A stretch of DNA of 24,000 nucleotides from an uncultured Gaiellaceae bacterium (lineage in GTDB: Bacteria; Actinomycetota; Thermoleophilia; Gaiellales; Gaiellaceae), in NCBI GenBank assembly GCA_963802765.1, contig CAWDJZ010000003.1, positions 217,987-241,986 of the forward strand. The letters are read 5' to 3'. Below, piece after piece: positions 1,640-24,000 of the stretch; position 1 is the first letter of the stretch; every line of letters starts with the position of its first letter. The translations under genes and the position numbers were made by a program. The notes under the pieces were generated by a model. It saw nothing but the letters and a program-made list of their open reading frames with translations. It was not told the DNA's origin and did no database searches.

Positions 1640-4202
<2,563 letters not shown>

Positions 4203-4278
4203 GACGAAACCGGCACAGATTCGCCACAGAGCCGTGTGCACCCTCCGTGACGGCGCGTTTCCCGCGCACGCTCGAGGC

Positions 4279-4848
4279 ATGCCCTCCCTGCCACGTCTCG
4301 CGCCGGCGGGCGCTCGTCTGTCGCCGCGGTCGCCCTTGCTGCTCCTCGCGGTGGCCGGGCGCACGCTGGTCGGGGCCGGCTCGGCCAGCGTCGAGCCGGC
4401 TGGCGCTCGTCCCCGAGCAGTCGGCGGCAGCGCCGAAGCTCGTCGTTCACGTCGCCGGAGCGGTCCGTCGCCCGGGTCTCTACCGGCTCGCCGAGGGCAA
4501 GAGAGTCGCCGACGCGGTCGCCCATGCGGGCGGAGCGACCGCGTCGGCCGACACCGCCGCGATCAACCTCGCCGCCCCGCTCGCCGACGGGATGCAGGTG
4601 CTCGTGCCGCGGCGGGTCACGTCCGGGGCGGACGCGGGTGCCGGCGCCGGCGGGCGGCCGTCCCAGTCTGAGCTCGGCCTCGCTCGACGGAGCTCGATGC
4701 GCTGCCGGGCGTCGGCCCCGTCACGGCCCAGAAGATCGTCGACTACCGGGCCGAGCACGGAGGTTTTCGCTCGGTCGACGACCTCGACGCGATCCCGGGA
4801 ATCGGTCCGGCGAGGATCGAGCAGCTCCGGGACCTGGTCTCGCCGTGA
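4279..4848 (+). CDS. comEA: Competence protein ComEA (DNA receptor; SLBB plus tandem helix-hairpin-helix), 3 or more frameshifts
   Basis: N-terminal hydrophobic segment '[11 protein letters not shown]'. SLBB-like '[49 protein letters not shown]'. HhH pair '[51 protein letters not shown]'. Frame switches lie near 4395, 4655 and 4688. The start codon is a best guess. TGA 4846-4848 overlaps the comEC GTG (GTGA). Confidence 0.72.
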
Positions 4849-7115
4849 TCGAGCGCAGCTGGCCGACGCTGCTCGTTCTTTGCGCCTGCGTCGGGCTTGC
4901 GTCCGCGAACGCCTGGCGGGCACCGGCTCTCGTCGTGGTGGTGATCTCGCTGCGGCGACAGCCGCCGTCGCCTCGGTCCGGGCTGCGCTTGCCTGCGTGC
5001 GCGCTCGCGCTGGCGTTGGTCGGCTGGTGGTGGGGCACCGCGCGTCTCGACGCGCTCGAGCGCAGCGTGCTCGTTGCCCGAGCTGGGACGGTCGGCGCCG
5101 CTCACGGCGGTCGTGACCGGTCCTGTGCGGCGAACGCCGTTCGCGCTTCGTGTTCCCGCGGAGGTGCGCCGATTCGATCGACGCGCGGTGCGGGAGCGCG
5201 TCCTGCTCGAGCTGCCGCTCGGGCGCTCGCCGCCACAGGGTGCCGTTCTCGCCCTCCGTGCAGTCGTCGACAGCTCCCCGCGGTCCCGAAGACGGCTTCG
5301 ACGAACGCGGCTGGCTCGCACGGCGCGGCGTCCACGTCGTTCTTCGCGGTGGCGAATGGCGCGTTGTCGGTCGTCGCGGCGGGATCGGCGGCGTCTCCGA
5401 TCGGCTGCGGGCACACGTCGCGCGCGCCATCGCCGCCTGGCCTCGACGGCGAGCGTCGTGCGGTGCTTGCCGGGATCGTGCTGGGCGAGGACGAAGGGCT
5501 CACCGACGAGCTCCGGGACAGCTTCAAGGCGTCGGGCCTCTACCACCTGTTGGCGGTGTCGGGGCAGAACATCACGTTTCTGGCGCTGGGCGTGCTGGGG
5601 CTCGCGTGGCTGCTCGGGATCTCGCGACTCTCAGCGCGAGCTGCTCGCAATCGTGGCGATCGCCGGCTACGTCCTCGCGGTCGGGTGGCAGCCGTCCGTC
5701 GTCCGGGCAGGGGTGGCCGGCGCGCTCGCGTCGCTGGCATGGCTGGTCGTCGCGGCCGCGAGACCGCTGGCACTTCCTCGCGCTCGGGGCTGCGGTCCTG
5801 CTCGCCTGGACGCCGGCCACGCCTGCTCGAGCCCGGCTTCCAGCTCTCGTTCGCAGCGGTTGGCTCGATCTTCCTCCTGGTGCCGAGGCTCAGGCTCGCG
5901 CTCGAGGGTTACCCGATGCCCGAGCTGGCTGCGCGAGGCGCTCGCGGTCTCCACCGCCTGCGGCGCCGCGACAGCGCCGATCCTCTGGCTCCAGTTCGGC
6001 AGCGTGCCGGTCTACTCGCTGCTCGGAAACGTTCTCGTCACGCTCGCGGTCGGGCCGCTGCTCGGGCTCGCGCTCGCTCGGCTCGCTCGTCGAGCCGGTG
6101 CTCCCGTCCGCGGCGCTCGCGCTCGCCTGGCTGAACGGCTGGCTGGCGGCGTACATCGCCGCCTGCGCGGCCATCGTCGGCGGCCTGCCGCTGGCCCAGA
6201 TCGGCTCCGGCGCGGCCGTGTGCGTGCTGCTCGGCACGCCGCTCGCGCTGCTCGGCCTGCGCCGCCTGCCGCCCTGGCGGCGAGGCGCAGCGCTCGCAGG
6301 CGCGCTGGCGATCGTGCCGGCACTCCTCGCTTGGCAGCTCGTGCCGGCGCAGTCGTTGCCGCCTCCGACCGGGCTGCGGCTCACGTTCCTCGACGTCGGC
6401 CAGGGCGACTCGATTCTCGTGCAGGTTCCGGAAGGGGCCGTGCTCGTCGATCAAGGACCGCCGGAGGGGGACGTCGCGCGGCAGCTGCGAGAGCTCGGGA
6501 TCCGTCGCCTCGCGGCGCTCGTGCTCACGCATCCCCAGCGCGACCACATCGGCGGCGCCGAGGCCGTCCTGCAACGGCTGGGCGTGGAGCGCGTGCTCGA
6601 CCCGCATCTGGCCGCGTCGAGCGAGTACCGGCGAGCGGCGCTCGCGGAGGCGGCGGAGCGGGGCGTGGCCGTCGTCGAGGCCCGGGCGGGCGACTCGTAC
6701 CGGCTCGGGCGGCTCCAGTTGCGCGTGCTCTGGCCGGACCGGCCGGGTACGCCGAGGCCGAGGATCCGAACCGGCTCCCGGTCGTCCTGCACGCGACCTA
6801 CGGCGACACCGACGCCTTGCTGACCGCGGACGCGGAGAACGACGTCACTGCGCGCCTCGTGTCCCGTCGGATCGAGATCCTCAAGGTCGCCCATCACGGC
6901 TCCGCCGATCCGGGTCTCGCAAGCGAACTGGGCGAGCTGCGACCCACCGTCGCGGTGATCTCGTGCGGCCGTGGCAACGACTATGGCCATCCGACAGCGT
7001 CGACGCTCGCGGCGCTGCGGGCGAGCCCGGGCTGAGCCTCTACCGAACCGACGAGGACGGGCGCGTAGTGGTCGAGTCGGACGGGCGCCGGATCTCGGTG
7101 CGGACCGACCGTTGA
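4845..7115 (+). CDS. comEC: DNA internalization competence protein ComEC/Rec2 with C-terminal metallo-beta-lactamase domain, 10 or more frameshifts
   Basis: '[54 protein letters not shown]', '[27 protein letters not shown]' and '[21 protein letters not shown]'. MBL domain '[55 protein letters not shown]', with tail '[27 protein letters not shown]'. The fragments alternate between ORFs 4524, 5074 and 5150. Frame switches lie near 5085, 5270, 5435, 5630, 5755, 5822, 5918, 6075, 6745 and 7030. Confidence 0.85.
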
Positions 7116-7120
7116 GTAGG

Positions 7121-8131
7121 GTGAACGACGTGGCCGGAACCGCCGACCTGAAGCCCGTGTACCTGCTCACCGGCAGCGACAGGCCGAAGATCGAGACCGC
7201 ACTCGCGCGCCTCCGCCGGCACTTCGAGCCGGAGGCCGTCGAACTCGTCTCCGCGCAGGACCTCTCAGGCCCCGAGGCAGCGGCGCTCTGCAATGCGGGC
7301 AGCCTCTTCGGCGATGCCAGACTCGTCGTCGTCGAGGGGATCGACGGCCGGCGGAACGCGGAGGGCCGGCTCGCGAACGGCTGGAAGGCGGCCGACGTGA
7401 AGGCGATCGAGGAGTACCTCTCGTCCCCGGCGCCCACAACCGTGCTCGCCCTCGTCGCCGAGGCGATCAAGAAGGACGCGCCGCTGGCCAAGGCGTGTGC
7501 GAAGGTCGGCGCGATTCTCGCCTACGACGTGCCGAAGCGAAACGTCGCGAGCTGGGTCGCCGAGCGCTTCAAGCAGGCGGGCGGCCGCGCCGAGCCCGAC
7601 GCCTGTGCGGCGCTCGTCCAGCTGGTCGGCGAGGACTTCCACCAGCTGGCGAACGAGATCGACAAGCTCGTGCTCTGGGCCGGCGACGAGCCGATCGGCG
7701 AGCGCGAGGTGGAACTGCTCGTCCCGGCAGTCGCCGACATGCCCACCTTCGCGCTCACCGACGCGTGGGGGCGGCGGGACACCAGTGCGACGCTCGAGGC
7801 GAGCGAGACGATCTTCGAGCGGGAGGGCCGTCCGCGTCGCGACACGGCGCCGCGGATGGCGGGTGCGCTCGGCAACCATCTTGCGCTCGTCCGCCGCTGT
7901 CAGCGTCTTGCCGCCGAAGGCGTCCGTCCACGAGAGGCCGCCTCGACGCTCAAGCGGCACCCTTTCTACGTCGACAAGGTGTTCGCCCAGGCGGCGAACT
8001 TCTCCGAGACCGAGCTCCTTGACGCGGTAGTGCGACTGGCCGCGCTCGACCATGCGCTCAAGGGCGGCAGCAAGCTAGCGCCCGACCTCGAGCTCCAGCG
8101 GGCGCTGGTCGACGTCGGGGCTGAGCCCTAG
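7121..8131 (+). CDS. holA: DNA polymerase III subunit delta
   Basis: Intact reading frame from GTG 7121 (an alternative GTG is at 7130): 'LKPVYLLTGSDRPKIETALARLRRHF..GSLFGDARLVVVEGID..LANEIDKLVLWAG..TFALTDAW..LKGGSKL'. Size (336 aa) and position between comEC and rpsT fit holA. Confidence 0.8.
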   Translation: MNDVAGTADLKPVYLLTGSDRPKIETALARLRRHFEPEAVELVSAQDLSGPEAAALCNAGSLFGDARLVVVEGIDGRRNAEGRLANGWKAADVKAIEEYLSSPAPTTVLALVAEAIKKDAPLAKACAKVGAILAYDVPKRNVASWVAERFKQAGGRAEPDACAALVQLVGEDFHQLANEIDKLVLWAGDEPIGEREVELLVPAVADMPTFALTDAWGRRDTSATLEASETIFEREGRPRRDTAPRMAGALGNHLALVRRCQRLAAEGVRPREAASTLKRHPFYVDKVFAQAANFSETELLDAVVRLAALDHALKGGSKLAPDLELQRALVDVGAEP

Positions 8132-11837: not shown

Positions 11838-11841
<4 letters not shown>

Positions 11842-12644
11842 CGTGGCTTCCCGGCGTCGCTCTCCCGGGCTGCGACCTCGGCGAGCCGCTTGATCGTCGT
11901 CAGCCGTTCGTCCCACTCCTCCGCGACTCGTGCCAGCCAGCGCGTGGCGGCGTCGAGGCGCTCCGCGCGGACGGCGTAGCGCACCTCGCGGCCCTCGCGC
12001 CTGCCTTCGACGAGGCCGGCTCGGTCGAGGACGGCGAGGTGCTTGGCGACCGCCTGTCGCGTCACGGGCAGCTCGGCGGCCAGGGCGGTGGCCGTTGCGT
12101 CGCCGTGGGCCAGGAGAGCGTCGAGGAGGCGGCGCCTGGTTGGGTCCGAGACCGCCGCCCAGAGCTCGTCCACCTCCTCGCGCGCTTCATCGCCTGCCGA
12201 GACGCCGGCCTGCTTCGACGCGTACTCGGCGAGCTCGCCGAGCTCGATCCGCCAGCCCTCCGTGTTCTCCTCGGCGTACTTCGCCTTCTCCGCCTCGGAG
12301 CCGTCGAGCTCGGTGAAGCCGCTCTCGACCACGCGCAGCCGGGTGCTCTCGCCCTCGCCGCTGAGGCTGAACTCGACGAGCGTCGAGTTGCCGGCGCGGG
12401 GCTCGGTGTCTGCCGGGCGTGACCAGCGAAACGCGAAGACATGCGGCGGCTCGACCTTCTCGACGCGCGCACGGAAGGAGCCGTACTCCTCCCACGTGAG
12501 AAGCGCTTCACCGCCGGGTCGCAAGTCGATCGCGGCCGAGTCGCCGAACCACGAACCGACATGCTCGGGCTCGGTCACGACCGCCCACACCACCTCCAGC
12601 GGCGCGTCGATCAGGATCTCACGTTCGATCCGATCCGGAACCAT
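11838..12644 (-). CDS. SRPBCC/AHSA1-like domain fused in one frame to a C-terminal ArsR-family winged-helix regulator
   Basis: ATG 12644 is preceded by AAGGAGG (12656-12650) with a 5-nt spacer. The N-terminal half, '[51 protein letters not shown]', is START/AHSA1-like. The C-terminal half, '[65 protein letters not shown]', is an ArsR-type HTH. The longer ORF-track start at 12941 is rejected. Confidence 0.8.
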
Positions 12645-12662
12645 CTGAACCTCCTTTGTCGT

Positions 12663-12677
12663 GCAACGATTGGTTGC
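12663..12677. promoter_or_regulatory. Operator-like near-palindrome, copy 1 (GCAACGATTGGTTGC)
   Basis: Its reverse complement GCAACCAATCGTTGC matches copy 2 at 14 of 15 positions. It lies 19-33 nt upstream of the ATG of the SRPBCC-ArsR gene, in a locally AT-richer divergent intergenic region. Confidence 0.5.
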
Positions 12678-12692
12678 GCATACTAGCAAAAC

Positions 12693-13897
12693 ATGCAACC
12701 AATGGTTGCTCCTCGTCGACGGGTCGCGCGCAACCCAGGGGTACACTCGACTCCGACCGAGGCACGTCGATCGATCGTTCGAGGGAGAGAGATTCCCGGA
12801 GCGCGCCACCTCTACGTCCACCTGCCCTTCTGCGCTCATCGCTGTGGCTACTGCGACTTCGTCACCGTCACGGGGGCAGAAGGCGAGCACGGCGACTACG
12901 TGGAAGCGCTCCTCGCCGAGCTCGAGGGCTCGAGCGGGCACACCTGGCGGACGAGGTCGAGACCGTCTTCGTCGGCGGCGGCACGCCGACTTTCACCGAG
13001 CCCACCGCGCTCGCGCGGCTGCTCGCCGGCCTTCCCGCGGCGGCCGAGAAGACGGTGGAGGCGAATCCCGAGACGGTGACGCCGGAGCTCGCCGCGCTTC
13101 TGCGCGAGCATGGCGTCGATCGCATCTCGCTCGGCGCGCAGAGCTTCCAGGCGCGCCTGCTCGAAGTGCTCGAGCGGCGAGCGCGGCCGGAGCACGTGCG
13201 CAGTGCGGTCGCCACGCTGCGCGACGCCGGCTTCGACAACGTCTCGCTCGACCTCATCTACGGCATTCCCGGCCAGAGCGCCGACGACCTCGAGCGCGAC
13301 CTCGACGAGGCGCTCGCGCTCGAGCCGGAGCATCTCTCCTGCTACGAGCTCGAGGCCAAACCGGGGACCCGCTTCACGCACGCGTACGGAGCGGAGCTCG
13401 AGCGCCAGGCGGAGGCGATGGAGGACTACTTCGAGCGTGTCGTCGAGGTGCTCACGGGCGCCGGCTACCGCTGGTACGAGACGGCGAACTTCTGCCGCAT
13501 GGACGCCGGGCGCGATCTTCGCGCTCGGCACAACCTGGCCTACTGGCTCGGCCGCGACTATCTCGGCATCGGCATCGGGGCCGTGTCGACCGTCGCGGGC
13601 CTGCGCTGGCGGAACGCACCGAGCCTGCCGCGCTACGTCGCGGCGCTGAGCCGGGGCGACCGACCCGCGCGCGAGCTCGAGCCGCTCGACGACGACGTGC
13701 AGGCGCGCGAGCGGCTGCTCCTCGGCCTCCGGCTCGACGAGCCGCTCGCGAGAGACGGCCTCGACGGCGCCGTCGACAGCGATGCGCTCGCGCGGCTCGT
13801 TCGCGGCGGCCTCGTCGACGCGGCCGGCGACACGCTCGTGCTGACCCGGCGGGGCCGCTTTCTCGGCGGCGCGGTGACTGCGGAGCTCCTCTCGTAG
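12693..13897 (+). CDS. hemW: Radical SAM heme chaperone HemW / HemN-like coproporphyrinogen III oxidase family, 1 frameshift near 12930
   Basis: 'RHLYVHLPFCAHRCGYCDF' (CxxxCxxC) is in the frame of ORF 12693. The rest, 'VETVFVGGGTPTF..TVEANPETVTPE..GVDRISLGAQSF..NVSLDLIYGIPGQS..HLSCYELEAKPGT..RWYETANF..HNLAYW', is in the frame of ORF 12656. The start is uncertain: the only in-frame ATGs (12693, 12702) give a 30-aa N-terminal extension and lie inside the operator-like palindrome. Confidence 0.85.
12695..12709. promoter_or_regulatory. Operator-like perfect palindrome, copy 2 (GCAACCA-A-TGGTTGC)
   Basis: Perfect 7-1-7 inverted repeat, centre-to-centre 32 bp from copy 1. It overlaps both candidate hemW ATGs (12693 and 12702). 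Confidence 0.5.
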
Positions 13898-14944: not shown

Positions 14945-16061
14945 ATGGCGACGGCGGAGCGCGATTACTACGAGCTGCTCGGAATCGAGCGCACGGCCAC
15001 CGAGGCGGAGGTCAAGAAGGCGTTTCGCCGGCTCGCGCGCGAGCTGCACCCGGACGTCTCGCAGGCGCCCGACGCACAGGAGCGCTTCCGGGCCGTCGCC
15101 GAGGCGTACGAGGTCCTCTCGAAGGCGGAGACGCGGCGGCTGTACGACCAGTACGGCCACGCCGGGCTGCGGCGCGGCGGCTACGCGCCCTCCGACTTCG
15201 ACTTCTCGAACCTGACCGACATCTTCTCGGCGTTCTTCGGCGACGACCTGTTCGCGCGCGACCGCGGCGGCCGGATGCGGGGCGGCGATGTCGGAGCCGC
15301 CGTCGCGATCGAGCTTGCGGAGGCGTATACGGGCGTCACGCAGGACCGTCACAGTGGAAGTCGCCGCCGCGTGCACGCACTGCGACGGCGACGGCGCCGA
15401 GCCGGGGTCCGAGCGTGTCACGTGTCAGACGTGCGCCGGCCGGGGGCAGCTGCGTCACGTGTCACGGAGCGTGTTCGGGGAGTTCGTTCGGACCCAGTCG
15501 TGCCCGACGTGCGGCGGCGCCGGCCGAGTCGTCGAGACGCCCTGCACCGCCTGCGCGGGCGAGGGGCGCGTGCTCGGGACGAAAGAGCTCGAGGTCGAGA
15601 TCCCGGCCGGGATCCACGACGGACAGCGGATCCGGATGCGCGGCGAGGGCCACGCCGGCGCCAACGGGGGGCTTCCCGGCGACGCGTACGTCGAGGTTCA
15701 CGTCGCGCGCGATGCGCGATTCGAGCGCGACGGCGACGACATCCTCGCGTCCGTCGACCTCACGATCGTCCAGGCGGCCCGGGGCACGACGCTCACGATC
15801 CCCACGCTCGCGGGTGATGTCGAGCTCGAGTTCGAGCCGGGCACGCAGCCCGGCGAAGTGCGTGTGCTGCGCGGCAAGGGGATGCCGTCGCTGCAACGGT
15901 CCGGCCGCGGCCACCACCGCGTGCTCGTCAACGTGGCCGTGCCGCGGCGTCTGACCGACGAGCAGCGCGAGCTGCTCGACCGCTTCGAGCAGCTCTCCGG
16001 CGAGGACACCTACCGACGCGACGAGAGCTTCTTCGAGAAGCTCCGCAGCGCGCTCCGCTGA
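14945..16061 (+). CDS. dnaJ: Molecular chaperone DnaJ (type I: J domain, Cys-rich zinc finger, C-terminal domains), 1 frameshift near 15340
   Basis: J domain '[32 protein letters not shown]' is in ORF 14945. CxxCxGxG repeats 'CTHCDGDG', 'CQTCAGRG', 'CPTCGGAG' and 'CTACAGEG', plus the C-terminal domains, are in ORF 15288..16061. Confidence 0.92.
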
Positions 16062-20067: not shown

Positions 20068-20925
20068 GTGCGCGTGAAACGACTGCTCGCACTCCTGCCG
20101 CTCGTAGTCGTCCTCTGTGCGCTGCTCGTGCTGACGGGCTGCGGCTCCAAGGACGCGCTCACGCTCGATCCGGTCGCGTCCGCTGCGTCGAAGACGACCG
20201 AGGCCGGAAGCTCTCGCGTCGCGTTCGAGACGTCGATGCAGCTCTTCGGCAAGGACGTGTCGTTCACCGCCGACGGCCTTTTCGACTACGGCGACTCGAC
20301 CGGCTCGATGACGCTCGATCTGGGGTCGATGCTGCCGCTCGCGGGCGTCGGCCAGTTCGAGCTTCGCATGGTCGACGAAAAGATCTACATGCGCCTGCCG
20401 TCCCTGATGGGGCTGGGCCTGCCGACCGACAAGGAGTGGGTCTCGCTCGAGCCCGGCAAGGCGCTCGAGGGCGCGGGCTTCGGCGGTCTCGACCCGTCGA
20501 GCATGCAGCAGGATCCCGCCCAGCTGCTCCGCCTGCTGCGCGCCTCCAGCGAGGTGACCGCGGCGGGCACGGCGACGATCCGCGGCGTCGACACGACGCG
20601 CTACACGGCCAAGCTCGACCTCCGGAAGTCGATCGAGGCGAGTGCGGAGGAGCTCGAGCTGACGGCGGAGCAGCGCGCCCTGCTGCGCCAGGCCGCCGAG
20701 CAGCTGGTGGATCAGGTCGAGACCGACACGCTTCCGGTCGAGGTGTACGTCGACGACGACGGCCTCCTACGCAGGCTCGCGCTGGATCTGTCGCTGAGCG
20801 CCGAGGGCCAGCGGCTCTCCATGAAGCAGACGACGGACTTCTACGACTTCGGTGTCGACGTCGACGTGGAGGCTCCGCCTGCCTCGCAGGTCTTCGACGT
20901 GACGAAGCAGCTTCAGTCCGGCTAG
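20068..20925 (+). CDS. Secreted lipoprotein of unknown function (possibly LolA/LprG-like fold)
   Basis: Signal peptide plus lipobox 'LLALLPLVVVLCALLVLTGC|GS'. Intact 285-aa ORF with no catalytic motif recognised. The fold suggestion is only an impression from its strand-rich pattern. Confidence 0.7.
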   Translation: MRVKRLLALLPLVVVLCALLVLTGCGSKDALTLDPVASAASKTTEAGSSRVAFETSMQLFGKDVSFTADGLFDYGDSTGSMTLDLGSMLPLAGVGQFELRMVDEKIYMRLPSLMGLGLPTDKEWVSLEPGKALEGAGFGGLDPSSMQQDPAQLLRLLRASSEVTAAGTATIRGVDTTRYTAKLDLRKSIEASAEELELTAEQRALLRQAAEQLVDQVETDTLPVEVYVDDDGLLRRLALDLSLSAEGQRLSMKQTTDFYDFGVDVDVEAPPASQVFDVTKQLQSG

Positions 20926-23900
20926 TCCGGCAGGGCGAACTCCGCGATCAGGTCGAAGTCGCCTGCGAGCACGCGGTCGATCCGTCCCGTGCGCGCGCCG
21001 GACGCATACCTGACGAGTGGGGAGGGCTCGCGCCGGTAGCGGCGCACGATCACCGCTTCGGCGCCGTCCGTGCTCGCCCAGCCGGGATCGAGCGCGGCGA
21101 CGCTGACGACAACCGTCGCACGGTCGAAGGAGCTCTCGCCGGCCGGCGTCTCCAGGACGTGCATGCCGTTCTCCCCGCGGAGGAGCGTGTAGGCGCCGAG
21201 CCCGACAACCTCGAGTATGCGCGTGTCGTGCCCGTCCGCCTCGCGGATCTGCATCCCTCGCCCGGCTGCCCAGCTGACGTACATCTCGCTGAGCTCCACA
21301 ACGAATGCCGCACAGGCGTTGGCATCGTCGCCGTGCCCGGGTCGGAGCGTGATCCGCGCGTCACTCGGCTCGCCGTCCTCGAGGCCTCTGAGCGCGCCAC
21401 GCAGGACGAGCAGCCGCCGCGACAGCAGCTCGACGAGCTCGCGCGAATGCGTCTCGCGTCCGGACGCGAGCCTTCCGGCGAGCCGTTTGGCGGTCCGGGT
21501 CGCGGCTTCCAGCCGGTCGAGGTACTCGACTCGGGCGAGCACGCCGGTACGTGCGTCCGACTCCCAGAACCCGGGCTCGTGCATCGACCCGAGCGCCTCT
21601 TCCTTCACGCTTCGCCAATGCTGCGACTCGTCGTCCACCGCCTCGAGCTCGGCGCGAAGGAACGCAGCCTCGGCCTGAGAGCCCTGCGGGTCGAGCGCGA
21701 GGGCGGCAAGCGTCAGCGCGCCGTCGGGCGGGGCGACACCGAGCGGCTCATCGGCTGCGTTCGGGTCGACGAAGGTGACCTCGAGACCCGCGCCGGGCCG
21801 CGCCGTGATGAAGAGGAACTGGTCTCCCGCGGGAAACGTGCGCTCGACGATCGCCTCCGCGAGGCGGGTGAGCAGATGCCGTTCGACCGCCCGCTTGAGC
21901 GGCCGCGCGCCGAGCTCGGCGGTGAACCCCTTCTCGATCAGGAAGTCGATCGCCGCCTCGTCCCACTCGACCGCCCACGGCTGCATGCGAAAGCCACGCC
22001 TGCGCAGGACGTCGGTCAGCTCCTTCTCGAGCAGGTCGCGCATCACCCCGCGGCCGAGCGGGCGAAAGACGACGACGCGGTCGAGCCGATTCAGGAACTC
22101 CGGCCGGAACGACCGCTCGACCGACCTGAGCACACCGGAGGCGTCGAATGCCTCCGTCCGTCCGACGAAGCCGACGCCGGGGCCTGTCGGGATCGCAGAG
22201 CCGAGATTCGAGGTGAGGATGATCACGCAATGGCGCAGGTCGACCGTGCGGCCGTTCCGGTCGGTGAGACGGCCGTCGTCGAAGACCTGGAGGAAGATGT
22301 CCCAGATCTGCGGATGCGACTTCTCGAACTCGTCGAGGAGGAGGACCGAGAAGGGCTGCTTGCGGACCTGGGCGATCAGCGGCGCGGCGTGCTTCTCGGT
22401 GGCGGCGTCGCCGAGCAGCCGGTCCAGGCTCTCGGGCGTCTGGTACTCGCTCATGTCGAGGCGGACCAGCCGGTCCTCGGAGCCGAAGACGAAGGCGCTG
22501 AACGCCTTGGCGATCTCCGTCTTGCCGGTGCCGGTCGGGCCGACGAAGAGGAAGACCCCGAGCGGCCGGGTCGGGTCGGTGAGCCCCGCTTTCACGAGCG
22601 CGATTCGCTCCACGAGGCAATCGACCGCTTCGGGCTGCCCGAGTACCCTCGCCTCGAAGAACGCACGGACGCGCTCGAGGCTCAGCGTCGCGCGCGGGTC
22701 GAGCACGTGGAGCGGCAGTCCGGTCGCGTCGCTCAGCGTCGAGATCACCGTCTCCGGCGAGACCTCCGAGGCGACGCCGCGGCGGATTCGGTCGCGCACG
22801 AGCTCGAGCAAGCGCAGCAGGTTCCCGGGGGCCGCCGTGGCGGGCAGATAGTGCGACGCGAGATCGAGCGCTTCGGCGAGCGTGTCGTCGTCCACCTCGA
22901 GCTCGTTCTGTGCCGCCCAGCCGCGTGCCACCTCGAGCGCGTCGGCATCGGAGATCGGCGTCAGGCGCACGACCTCGAAGAGACGCGCGACCCGTGGCCG
23001 CTGCTGGATGACGAGCTCGTACGCGAGCGGGTCGATCTCGCCCACGACGATCGCGTCGCCCGACTCGACGAACGGGAGCAGCGCGTCGAGGACCCCGCGC
23101 GGGCTCTGCATGTGCTGGCCGGACCAGAGTGCCTCCTCGAAGCTCGGGAAGATCCAGGCGATCTTGCGTCCCGCGGTCCGGCGGACGATGTCGTGCACGC
23201 GCTCTTCGAGCATGCCGATGAACGCCTGGCCGGCGTTCACGTCCGCTGCACTCGCCTGAAACGCGAGCCAGCCGCCCTCGAGCCGGCGAACCGCCTCGAG
23301 GATCAGCGACGTCTTGCCCGCCCCGGGGTCGCCGACGAGCAGCACTGAGCGTGGCTGCGGCGAGTCGAGCGCGGCCGCGATCGCGTCGACCGCGATCGCG
23401 CGGGAGCCGACGATCGTCGCCGCGGGGAGTTCGTCCGGCTCGAGCACGCGGCCGAGCTCCTTGAAGAAGGTGACGTCGACGAACGAGCGGCGCCACTCCT
23501 GCATCGCGGGCTCGAACGCGACACGCGTCCGCTCGCTCCCGGCACGGAGGATCTCGTCGACGACGGGTTGCAGGCTCGCCTCGAGCTCGCCGAGCTCTTC
23601 GGCGGTGACGGTCTCGCCGGCCGCGACCCGGGCATCGACGAAGCGGGCGACCTCCTTGATGATCGGGGCATCGCTCCAGTCCTCCTCCGCCGCGCGCAGG
23701 ATCTCGAGCGTGAGACGGCCCTCGCACACTGCGAGCGCGCGCAACAGGAGCTGGCGCTCACCCCACTCGGCGCGTTCGAAGCGGCCGGCCGCCCACTCCG
23801 GCCAGCCACCCGGTGCTCGGCGTCCGGCAGCGATCGCGCCGAGCGCGCCCACGCGCAGGTGCTTGCTCGGCGCGCGCGCCGCGTCGGCGAACGCGCTGTA

Positions 23901-23966
23901 CGGCACGCGATCCTCGCTGCCGAGGAGCTCGACGAGCCGCTCGAAGTCCTCGTCATCGTCGAGCAT
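20922..23966 (-). CDS. ClpA/ClpC-type double AAA+ ATPase with an N-terminal helical domain and a C-terminal class-I release-factor-like module lacking the GGQ domain; frame stays open to the window end at 24000
   Basis: D1 has 'VLLVGDPGAGKTSL' with ClpA/B D1-like context ('AYELVIQQRPRVARLFEVVRLTPIS', 'APGNLLRLLELV'). D2 has 'LGQPEAVDCLVERIALVKAGLTDPTRPLGVFLFVGPTGTGKTEIAKA', 'SVLLLDEFEKSHPQIWDIFLQVFDDGRLTD', 'VIILTSNLGS', 'FRPEFLNRLDRVVVFRPL' and 'GARPLKRAVE'. The C-terminus has 'EPGFWESDAR', 'ARITLRPGHGDDANACAAFVVELSEMYVSWAAGRGM', 'GLGAYTLLRGENGMHVL' and 'VRRYRREPSPLVRYASGARTGRIDRVLAGDFDLI', all RF1/RF2-like. There are no frameshifts in 3 kb. The codons upstream of ATG 23966 (LAERHPWLDAD) contain no stop, so the true start may lie beyond the window. 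Confidence 0.85.
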   Translation of the reverse strand: MLDDDEDFERLVELLGSEDRVPYSAFADAARAPSKHLRVGALGAIAAGRRAPGGWPEWAAGRFERAEWGERQLLLRALAVCEGRLTLEILRAAEEDWSDAPIIKEVARFVDARVAAGETVTAEELGELEASLQPVVDEILRAGSERTRVAFEPAMQEWRRSFVDVTFFKELGRVLEPDELPAATIVGSRAIAVDAIAAALDSPQPRSVLLVGDPGAGKTSLILEAVRRLEGGWLAFQASAADVNAGQAFIGMLEERVHDIVRRTAGRKIAWIFPSFEEALWSGQHMQSPRGVLDALLPFVESGDAIVVGEIDPLAYELVIQQRPRVARLFEVVRLTPISDADALEVARGWAAQNELEVDDDTLAEALDLASHYLPATAAPGNLLRLLELVRDRIRRGVASEVSPETVISTLSDATGLPLHVLDPRATLSLERVRAFFEARVLGQPEAVDCLVERIALVKAGLTDPTRPLGVFLFVGPTGTGKTEIAKAFSAFVFGSEDRLVRLDMSEYQTPESLDRLLGDAATEKHAAPLIAQVRKQPFSVLLLDEFEKSHPQIWDIFLQVFDDGRLTDRNGRTVDLRHCVIILTSNLGSAIPTGPGVGFVGRTEAFDASGVLRSVERSFRPEFLNRLDRVVVFRPLGRGVMRDLLEKELTDVLRRRGFRMQPWAVEWDEAAIDFLIEKGFTAELGARPLKRAVERHLLTRLAEAIVERTFPAGDQFLFITARPGAGLEVTFVDPNAADEPLGVAPPDGALTLAALALDPQGSQAEAAFLRAELEAVDDESQHWRSVKEEALGSMHEPGFWESDARTGVLARVEYLDRLEAATRTAKRLAGRLASGRETHSRELVELLSRRLLVLRGALRGLEDGEPSDARITLRPGHGDDANACAAFVVELSEMYVSWAAGRGMQIREADGHDTRILEVVGLGAYTLLRGENGMHVLETPAGESSFDRATVVVSVAALDPGWASTDGAEAVIVRRYRREPSPLVRYASGARTGRIDRVLAGDFDLIAEFALPD

Positions 23967-24000
23967 GTCCGCGTCGAGCCATGGATGACGCTCGGCGAGC

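Follow-up and report, generated by a model that had tools for sequence, protein, structure and literature searches.

What might a Clp-type AAA+ motor do with the remains of a release factor (RF) at its C-terminus? The question is raised by a gene at the right-hand end of a 24,000-nucleotide stretch of DNA (hereafter, the window; positions 217,987 to 241,986 of the forward strand of contig CAWDJZ010000003.1, assembly GCA_963802765.1) from an uncultured Gaiellaceae bacterium of the Actinomycetota. The gene occupies positions 20922..24000 on the minus strand (stop codon at 20922-20924, first ATG at 23966), its frame is still open at the window edge, and the open reading frame (ORF) counted from that ATG is 1014 aa long. 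An earlier interpretation of the window, made from its letters only (the sequence-only reading), described a single uninterrupted ORF of 1014 aa or more made of four parts. The ORF was borne out, the full protein having 1044 aa, and all four parts were found: a helical N-terminal domain, two AAA+ rings (D1 and D2), and an RF module. This architecture suggests a machine that is delivered to stalled ribosomes.

The C-terminal module, of about 255 aa, is a class-I RF (RF2-like) without domain 3. RF domain 1 lies at 21378..21686 on the minus strand, as do all the features of this gene given below, and covers window aa 761-863; it is a helical bundle with an RF2-type 'PGFWES' motif. RF domain 2 follows at 21093..21377 (window aa 864-958) with the MY..WA..RG and G.GAY..L..E.G.H core kept, and RF domain 4 together with the C-terminal tail (IVRRYRREPSPLVRYASGARTGRIDRVLAGDFD...) closes the protein at 20925..21050. 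The place of domain 3, which in RF2 comprises ~98 aa and carries the GGQ motif, is taken by a short variable loop (21051..21092; 14 aa here). Domains 1, 2 and 4 were those assigned in the sequence-only reading, and the Pfam match, a profile search of the PDB and structure prediction agree on them. Pfam PCRF (PF03462) matches aa 854-950 above its gathering score of 24, scoring 28.5 bits when the whole protein is searched and 31.8 bits when the C-terminus is searched by itself; among 30 diverse members, PCRF matched 27 and the NCBIfam prfB model 25, and a single-sequence phmmer search matched T. maritima RF1 (E 5e-4). When a profile of the module built from 30 diverse C-termini was run against all PDB sequences, RF2 and RF1 chains made up 38 of the 39 matches at E <= 1 (best E, 1.7e-10), the sole non-RF match being ribosomal protein L35A (E 0.88). 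The match of this profile to RF2 consists of three collinear blocks (domain 1 with 'P.FW', domain 2, and domain 4) that skip RF2 residues ~221-318. The AlphaFold2 model of the module has a predicted local distance difference test score (pLDDT) of 90.6 and a predicted template modeling score of 0.87, and its top 50 Foldseek matches in the PDB were all RF1, RF2 or mtRF1, with a probability of 1.00 and E values down to 2e-9. HMMER also reproduced each of the four alignments to RFs that had been drawn by eye: 'epgFWes.dra' against RF2 'PDVWNEPERA', the block 'D..v.v.a....a..fa..l..MY..Wa..RG', 'GlgAy.iL..E.GlHvl' against RF 'G.YAYGWLRTETGVHRL', and the domain 4 block 'vRRYRrePSPLvRd....RtGr.drVLaGdFD'.

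Among the Pfam families expected in the sequence-only reading, AAA_2, ClpB_D2-small and PCRF were recovered, but RF-1 (PF00472, the GGQ domain) was matched neither in the window protein nor in the 30 diverse members, because the GGQ domain has been deleted. Of the 72 loci with both motifs, 70 have 41-61 aa separating the domain 2 strand GxHxxE from the domain 4 strand RRYR, against roughly 120-140 aa for the equivalent spacing in RFs (a rough estimate from the E. coli RF1 sequence). Retention of GGQ in some members was considered and rejected, the five GGQ strings lying by chance within domain 1 or the loop. As for codon reading, the N-terminus or tip of helix alpha5 (GTGGDEA in RFs; GxxE) differs among members in length as well as in sequence, the otherwise variable PxT/SPF loop retains one Pro (P971) and one Arg (R979) in the numbering of P0001 (the 1044-aa database protein, 100% identical to the window protein), the position of the stacking His is V, A or I, and a variable linker stands in for the switch loop. 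The term 'decoding' that had been applied to the module has to be withdrawn, since every codon-reading element is lost. Judged by what it no longer carries, the module cannot hydrolyze peptidyl-tRNA and cannot read stop codons, and would be a codon-independent A-site binder at most.

What has been kept is above all domain 4, with a nearly invariant VRRYRxxPSPLVRDxxxxWRTGRxDRVLxGDFD motif. Conservation within the protein, scored over 59 loci of many phyla, is highest in RF domain 4 (0.85), followed by D2 (0.75), RF domains 1 and 2 (0.54), and the N-terminal domain, which is the least conserved (0.40). The first rank of domain 4 implies a conserved binding partner, and the fact that this Arg-rich domain is conserved beyond the ATPase argues for a ribosomal role. 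Domain 1 points in the same direction: to our knowledge, it has no role in RFs apart from contacts with the ribosome and RF3, so its retention here also argues for a ribosomal function.

The module does not exist apart from the motor in any of the best matches. A word-indexed search returned more than 1200 homologues, deposited solely under the names 'AAA family ATPase' and 'ClpC', with the architecture common to the top 120. With the RF-module profile we found at least 404 representatives (50% identity clusters) at E <= 1e-30; in the 150 best of them the module was always at the extreme C-terminus (150/150), ending a protein of about 865-1230 aa, and no stand-alone occurrence was seen (the shorter proteins among the representatives look like 5'-truncated gene calls). 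A genome scan with one genome per species matched at least 148 species, the best 80 loci of which were used for the locus analyses. All 80 are metagenome-assembled genomes (MAGs) from uncultured soil and sediment lineages, distributed among the Gaiellaceae, other Actinomycetota, Gemmatimonadota, Planctomycetota, Calditrichota, Acidobacteriota, Verrucomicrobiota, Bacteroidota/Rhodothermales, Thermodesulfobacteriota, several Pseudomonadota classes, and Eisenbacteria, and the family spans about 10 phyla. In nearly all of the 80, the stop-to-stop ORF that carries the RF module exceeds 1000 aa and has two Walker A motifs. The fusion of Clp motor and RF module is obligate. Some loci (L003, L010, L011, L016, L017, L031, L045, L077, and L079) have the module on a shorter ORF of 290-564 aa; these ORFs, which come mostly from long-read MAGs, are likely frameshifted, stand-alone or truncated forms being also possible.

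The best PDB relatives of the motor are ClpB (1.8e-73), ClpC (2e-72), and ClpA (1.5e-51), and both rings are collinear with ClpA (query 204-715 versus ClpA 206-729). Its motif statistics were taken from 92 full-length homologues and extended to loci from other phyla. The first of two tandem Walker A motifs, G.GK[TS], lies at window aa 212-219, and the second, GPTGTGKT, 264 aa further on, at aa 476-483; both are kept in nearly every homologue (91-92 of 92) and in the majority of the 80 loci. This spacing, together with the collinear ClpA alignment, agrees with the absence of a ClpB-type M-domain that had been noted from the letters. The NCBIfam models of ClpA, ClpB, ClpK, ClpG, and ClpV all match, although far under their equivalog cut-offs (the best scores are 277 bits for ClpB, with a cut-off of 1232, and 251 bits for ClpA, with a cut-off of 993), and the ClpB models match only D2 (profile positions 524-840).

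D1 (22662..23411; window aa 186-435), delimited by the collinear ClpA alignment and the motif statistics, is divergent. Pfam gives P-loop-type matches at aa 193-263, and the ClpA/B-like ring of the sequence-only reading is present, with its P-loop at aa 212-219 (Walker A GDPGAGKT, 23310..23333) and its collinearity with ClpA. The pore-1 loop AGQAFIG (23214..23234; consensus, AGQx[YF]xG) is the counterpart of AGAKYRG in ClpB and has Y or F at the aromatic position in 89/92 homologues. The Walker-B-like stretch WIFPSFEEAL (23127..23156) reads P-x-F-E-E at the Walker B position here and FHEL, FQEL, FHLL, or others in other phyla, so that its acidic pair varies among phyla, and the arginine-finger positions are variable. 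The set expected of a competent D1 (Walker B hhhhDE, sensor 1, and arginine finger) was not found, and D1 is probably an ATP-binding but hydrolysis-impaired ring.

D2, in turn, has a large domain (Pfam AAA_2; 22062..22661; window aa 436-635) with a PF07724 match at aa 467-630 (E 8e-41), and a small domain (21762..22061) with a ClpB_D2-small match (PF10431) at aa 639-716 (E 1e-13) and a conserved C-terminal beta extension, FPxGDQFLF...VxFVDP; a variable, acidic, proline-rich linker (21687..21761; window aa 736-760) lies between it and the RF module. Walker A (GPTGTGKT, 22518..22541), Walker B (LLLDEFEK, 22320..22343; invariant in DEFEK), sensor 1 (TSN), and sensor 2 (GARPLKR) are invariant, and D2 is predicted to be competent for ATP hydrolysis. 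The description of this ring as 'canonical' therefore holds for the AAA_2 domain, the small domain and the ATPase motifs but not for the pore, where the GYVG pore-1 tyrosine is deleted in 92/92 homologues. The degenerate pore-1 loop, GDAATEKHAAP (22380..22412), lies at the site of GAPPGYVGYEEGG in ClpB/ClpC and has a 3-residue deletion with respect to them that is visible directly in the PDB alignments; its sequence is variable, and it has no aromatic residue in any of the 92 homologues or in the loci from other phyla. The GYVG pore-1 tyrosine is the substrate-pulling residue of ClpA, ClpB, and ClpC, and the GYVG loop of D2 is normally essential for translocation into ClpP. Because this tyrosine is deleted and D1 has neither the Walker B pair nor the arginine finger, 'unfoldase' is not a label that can safely be assumed for the protein.

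Past sensor 1, a surface loop of D2 carries the tripeptide VGF (22167..22175; window aa 598-600). Its GF is present in 91/92 homologues and follows an L, V, I, or M (IGF, LGF, VGF, and MGF across phyla). HMMER places it exactly on the VGF of B. subtilis ClpC, which we take to be the ClpP-docking tripeptide, whereas ClpB has no such motif there. An [LIV]-G-[FL] tripeptide after sensor 1 of the last AAA+ ring, as is expected of a ClpP partner, is hence found in this family. A D1 without canonical Walker B and arginine finger, a D2 without pore tyrosine, and an invariant [LIVM]GF loop are new details for such a motor.

The N-terminal domain (23412..24000; window aa ~1-185 plus 11 upstream codons) takes up the first 185-215 aa and was modeled by AlphaFold2 as an all-helical alpha-solenoid (pLDDT 90.4), as the helical N-domain of the sequence-only reading had anticipated. 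It has no Pfam match in aa 1-190, the double Clp repeat of Clp_N included, and is weakly armadillo (ARM)/HEAT-like: the best Foldseek matches were designed armadillo proteins and AlkD2, with low significance (E ~0.02-0.1, TM 0.3-0.4). A subfamily of ~864-880 aa (homologues P0089, P0094, P0097, and P0114) has the D1-D2-RF arrangement without this domain, which indicates that the ARM-like part is dispensable for the core function.

Taken part by part, the protein resembles ClpA and ClpC in its two AAA+ modules, collinear with ClpA (206-729) and without a ClpB-type M-domain, and in an AAA_2 D2 followed by the D2-small domain with intact Walker A/B and sensors; the [LIVM]GF loop at the site of the ClpC VGF is a further likeness to ClpC. 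It differs from both in having an ARM-like solenoid instead of Clp_N, a degenerate Walker B and arginine finger in D1, and a deleted GYVG loop in D2, and from ClpB and Hsp104 in lacking the coiled-coil M-domain. The 255-aa RF-like C-terminus has no counterpart in the matched PDB chains of ClpA, ClpB, and ClpC, the alignments to which stop at the D2-small domain. The protein is a member of the Clp/Hsp100 class-I (double-ring) superfamily that fails several of the features defining ClpA, ClpB, or ClpC.

How would these parts work together? Tentatively, and with somewhat less than even confidence, we propose that the dead RF module targets the ATPase to the ribosome, where a polypeptide would be extracted and fed to ClpP. 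The RF module would be a codon-independent address label for the ribosomal A site or factor-binding site, and the target would be ribosomes with a vacant A site, e.g., stalled, non-stop, damaged, or idle ones. The ATPase would be tethered to RF domain 1 through a flexible linker of ~25 aa; since in RF-ribosome complexes this domain points to the solvent side, close to the L11 stalk, it is conceivable that a large fusion at its N-terminus could be accommodated. Hydrolyzing ATP, the D2 ring would power the machine, the aromatic pore loops of D1, the only ones left, would grip the substrate, and the ARM-like N-domain would perhaps select it. The [LIVM]GF loops would dock ClpP, and the ribosome-bound polypeptide would be extracted and degraded, with nascent chains, trapped factors, ribosomal proteins, and hibernation proteins as candidate substrates. 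A ribosome-targeted motor of this kind seems plausible, and the conservation of domain 4 and the presence of the [LIVM]GF loop make it more attractive.

Several observations weigh against this proposal. The elements lost from the module (alpha5 tip, PxT/SPF, stacking His, and switch loop) are the codon-specific contacts with the mRNA and the decoding center. On the motor side, D1 is without a conserved Walker B and arginine finger, and the missing GYVG loop of D2 makes processive unfolding and degradation uncertain. No clpP gene was found within 10 kb in 80/80 loci (tblastn with an E. coli ClpP query), but clpA and clpC, too, usually lie apart from clpP, and linkage is not a defining trait. 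Apart from a generic housekeeping cluster (hrcA-dnaJ ... phoH), nothing in the genomic neighborhood links the gene specifically to translation. Finally, even within domain 4, the position of P0001 residue 1017 is Asp in 88/92 members and in the aligned RF2 (MVKD), but Tyr in the clade of the window. This Tyr (PLVRY; window aa 987, ~21006-21008) is present in the window protein and its species-level relatives, and is not a sequencing error, because several independent MAGs share it.

The loss of all the tested ribosome- or codon-specific motifs would also be expected if the RF scaffold had been repurposed for non-ribosomal binding, the protein being a specialized Clp protease or chaperone that has nothing to do with the A site. 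The module would then bind a substrate or adaptor (such as ArfA-like factors, PrmC, or RF3) or another RNA, or serve in oligomerization or regulation. The conserved residues that remain are largely the fold-determining core of RFs, and the gene context offers no translation-specific partner, both of which fit such a role. However, members from about 10 phyla have kept three RF domains, domain 1 among them, with the order and fold that these have in RFs, and domain 4 exceeds the ATPase in conservation with invariant Arg residues (RRYR, RTGR), a pattern typical of a conserved and probably RNA partner. We regard repurposing as unlikely, while still a serious contender.

Rather improbable, in our opinion, is that the protein splits or recycles ribosomes without proteolysis. 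In this case the GGQ-less module would sit in the A site like Pelota/Dom34, and the motion of the AAA+ ring would pry the subunits apart or evict peptidyl-tRNA-50S, in analogy to Pelota-ABCE1 or the bacterial HflX. Splitting, too, is compatible with the RF fold and with a highly conserved domain 4, and the lost pore tyrosine of D2 suits a remodeler that does not thread its substrate; the logic is that of Dom34, an RF paralogue without catalysis or codon reading that works with an ATPase (PMC6514570). Nevertheless, without ClpP it is difficult to see why an [LIVM]GF loop would be invariant, and the conserved aromatic pore loop of D1 suggests that a polypeptide is gripped.

A role in anti-phage defense or another conflict system, with the RF-like module as sensor or decoy for a phage factor directed against termination or the A site and the AAA+ part (with or without ClpP) as effector, appears very unlikely. 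The patchy distribution over about 10 phyla at 35-45% identity suggests horizontal transfer, and the AAA part matches the PADLOC models DolB (6e-28) and PDC-M37B; but these matches are confined to the generic AAA_2 region (aa 430-590, equivalent to positions 130-280 of the 375 in the DolB profile), and the protein does not belong with Dodola DolB/PDC-M37B. Moreover, there is no conserved partner gene or defense-island context, the Gaiellaceae gene has a syntenic housekeeping setting, with phoH on one side and the hrcA-dnaJ cluster on the other, tblastn against 72,556 plasmids and 50,697 phages found no copy, and the structural comparison gave no viral match.

That the gene is an artifact (a chimeric assembly of a clp gene with a decayed prfB gene, or a pseudogene) is practically out of the question, since independent assemblies contain the fusion time and again, which refutes it. 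The assembly does have errors, as other genes of the window (dnaJ, leuS) look frameshifted, but the 3-kb ORF is uninterrupted, with a GC content at third codon positions (GC3) of 0.90. The fusion is known from at least 404 clusters and no fewer than 148 species, strong purifying selection acts on its RF part, and the 1044-aa product is identical across several independent assemblies.

A possible link to the ribosome would matter because of what is already in place there. Bacterial ribosome rescue and quality control rely on tmRNA, ArfA/B, BrfA, PrfH, HflX, MutS2, and RqcH, and we know of no AAA+ protease in bacterial rescue that acts other than downstream, via degrons on released chains. A Clp-type motor tethered to an A-site-shaped module would, if confirmed, be a new principle for bacteria. 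It is possible, though we would call it doubtful, that this is the first bacterial AAA+ machine to dock directly in the A site by means of a dead RF, either extracting and degrading with ClpP or remodeling or splitting, the targets being stalled or damaged ribosomes. The division of labor would be unusual too, with a dead D1 ring that grips and a D2 ring without pore tyrosine that powers. Whatever the target, the motor is of mechanistic interest for AAA+ proteins: the hydrolysis-impaired ring keeps the pore aromatics, while the active ring has lost them and keeps a loop of the ClpP-docking type. Since this is a large family under generic names, with its best 80 loci uncultured, a sizeable piece of proteostasis or translation biology may be unexplored. 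The architecture is real and widespread, and the ribosome quality-control hypothesis is specific and directly testable.

Among known systems, the closest relatives of the module are RF2 (prfB) and RF1, with homologous sequence and fold over domains 1, 2, and 4 and, for RF2, the 'P.FW' motif of domain 1 and the core motifs of domains 2 and 4. It differs from them in the lack of domain 3 and GGQ, in codon-reading elements that are not kept, and in never standing alone among the 150 best representatives; with neither GGQ nor tripeptide anticodon, the family protein is not a release factor. PrfH keeps GGQ, has no domain 1, and rescues damaged ribosomes, paired with RtcB2. In contrast, the family module has domain 1 and no GGQ, and there is no rtcB partner gene. 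Both are RF2-derived with altered decoding motifs, PrfH being thought or known to act on abnormal ribosomes (PMC12829566, PMC6514570). A relationship to PrfH was considered and rejected, with no prfH family among the NCBIfam matches and no conserved neighbor. In the ribosome rescue and quality-control systems of archaea and eukaryotes, Dom34 has lost catalysis and codon reading, and Vms1 recruits the AAA+ unfoldase Cdc48 (PMC6514570). Pelota/Dom34-ABCE1 and Vms1-Cdc48 share with the family the coupling of an RF relative to an ATPase, by analogy and not homology; they have the unrelated eRF1 fold and are separate polypeptides, whereas here a bacterial-type RF fold (the only one returned by the Foldseek search with the module) is covalently fused to the motor. 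The family would, if the ribosomal role holds, be a single-polypeptide bacterial counterpart of these systems and a convergent parallel to them. We found no description of a Clp-RF fusion in the searchable literature, including a review of the field (PMC6514570), within an incomplete literature coverage, in line with the sequence-only reading, to which no characterized protein with this combination was known.

The minus-strand ORF at 20922-24000 is a genuine coding sequence. Its GC content per codon position is 0.76/0.47/0.90, the pattern of a real gene in a window of ~70% GC, and the long overlapping ORFs on the opposite strand are GC artifacts. Upstream of the first ATG the frame continues for 11 open codons (LAERHPWLDAD), up to base 23999. 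The N-terminus of P0001 starts MPRRRDKFKDKEIRSLVETLAERHPWLDADM, and its length of 1044 aa places the true start ~19 codons past base 24000. The same 1044-aa product is present in several independent assemblies, and a mis-assembled join of two genes, which the sequence-only reading had named as one of the findings that would overturn it, is excluded by the recurrence of the architecture in hundreds of independent assemblies.

Downstream, the gene converges on an ORF at 20068-20925 (plus strand; a weak DUF7537 match, below threshold), with a 4-bp overlap at the stop codons (20922-20925) that leaves no space for an intergenic terminator. The upstream context was taken from a 96% identical locus (L001), where the gene diverges from phoH; flanked in this manner by a convergent DUF7537-like ORF and a divergent phoH, it must be monocistronic. 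In L001, the apparent starts of phoH and the target gene are ~34 bp apart (7672-7706, just past window base 24000), which implies that the promoters overlap coding sequence or that one of the starts is mis-assigned. The surrounding genes are housekeeping ones: leuS, comEC, holA, murJ, a hemW-like gene, hrcA, dnaJ, a MiaB-like gene, and yqeY ... phoH. A conserved operon partner was sought by all-against-all clustering of the flanking ORFs of the 80 loci and rejected, the clusters being within-Gaiellaceae synteny and paralogous families (kinases, ABC transporters, GGDEF/EAL proteins, histidine kinases, and short-chain dehydrogenases/reductases); with no partner gene, targeting and motor would be self-contained. 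Heat-shock control through the CIRCE element was likewise rejected, as L001 has no match to it with up to 3 mismatches allowed.

Other genes of the window are less intact. dnaJ (14945-16061, plus strand) is split over two frames, with the J domain in the ORF at 14945-15817 and the Cys-rich and C-terminal domains in that at 15288-16061, a frameshift that is either an assembly error or a sign of a pseudogene. leuS (2472-5116, plus strand) also looks fragmented: the editing domain is in the ORF at 2472-3827, and the anticodon-binding domain opens the ORF at 3824-5116, which then runs into a ComEA-like SLBB domain. The fragmentation of leuS suggests more frameshift errors in the assembly, with the target ORF intact. 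Finally, the ORF at 11838-12941 (minus strand) combines an AHSA1/SRPBCC domain with a C-terminal helix-turn-helix domain of the ArsR type.

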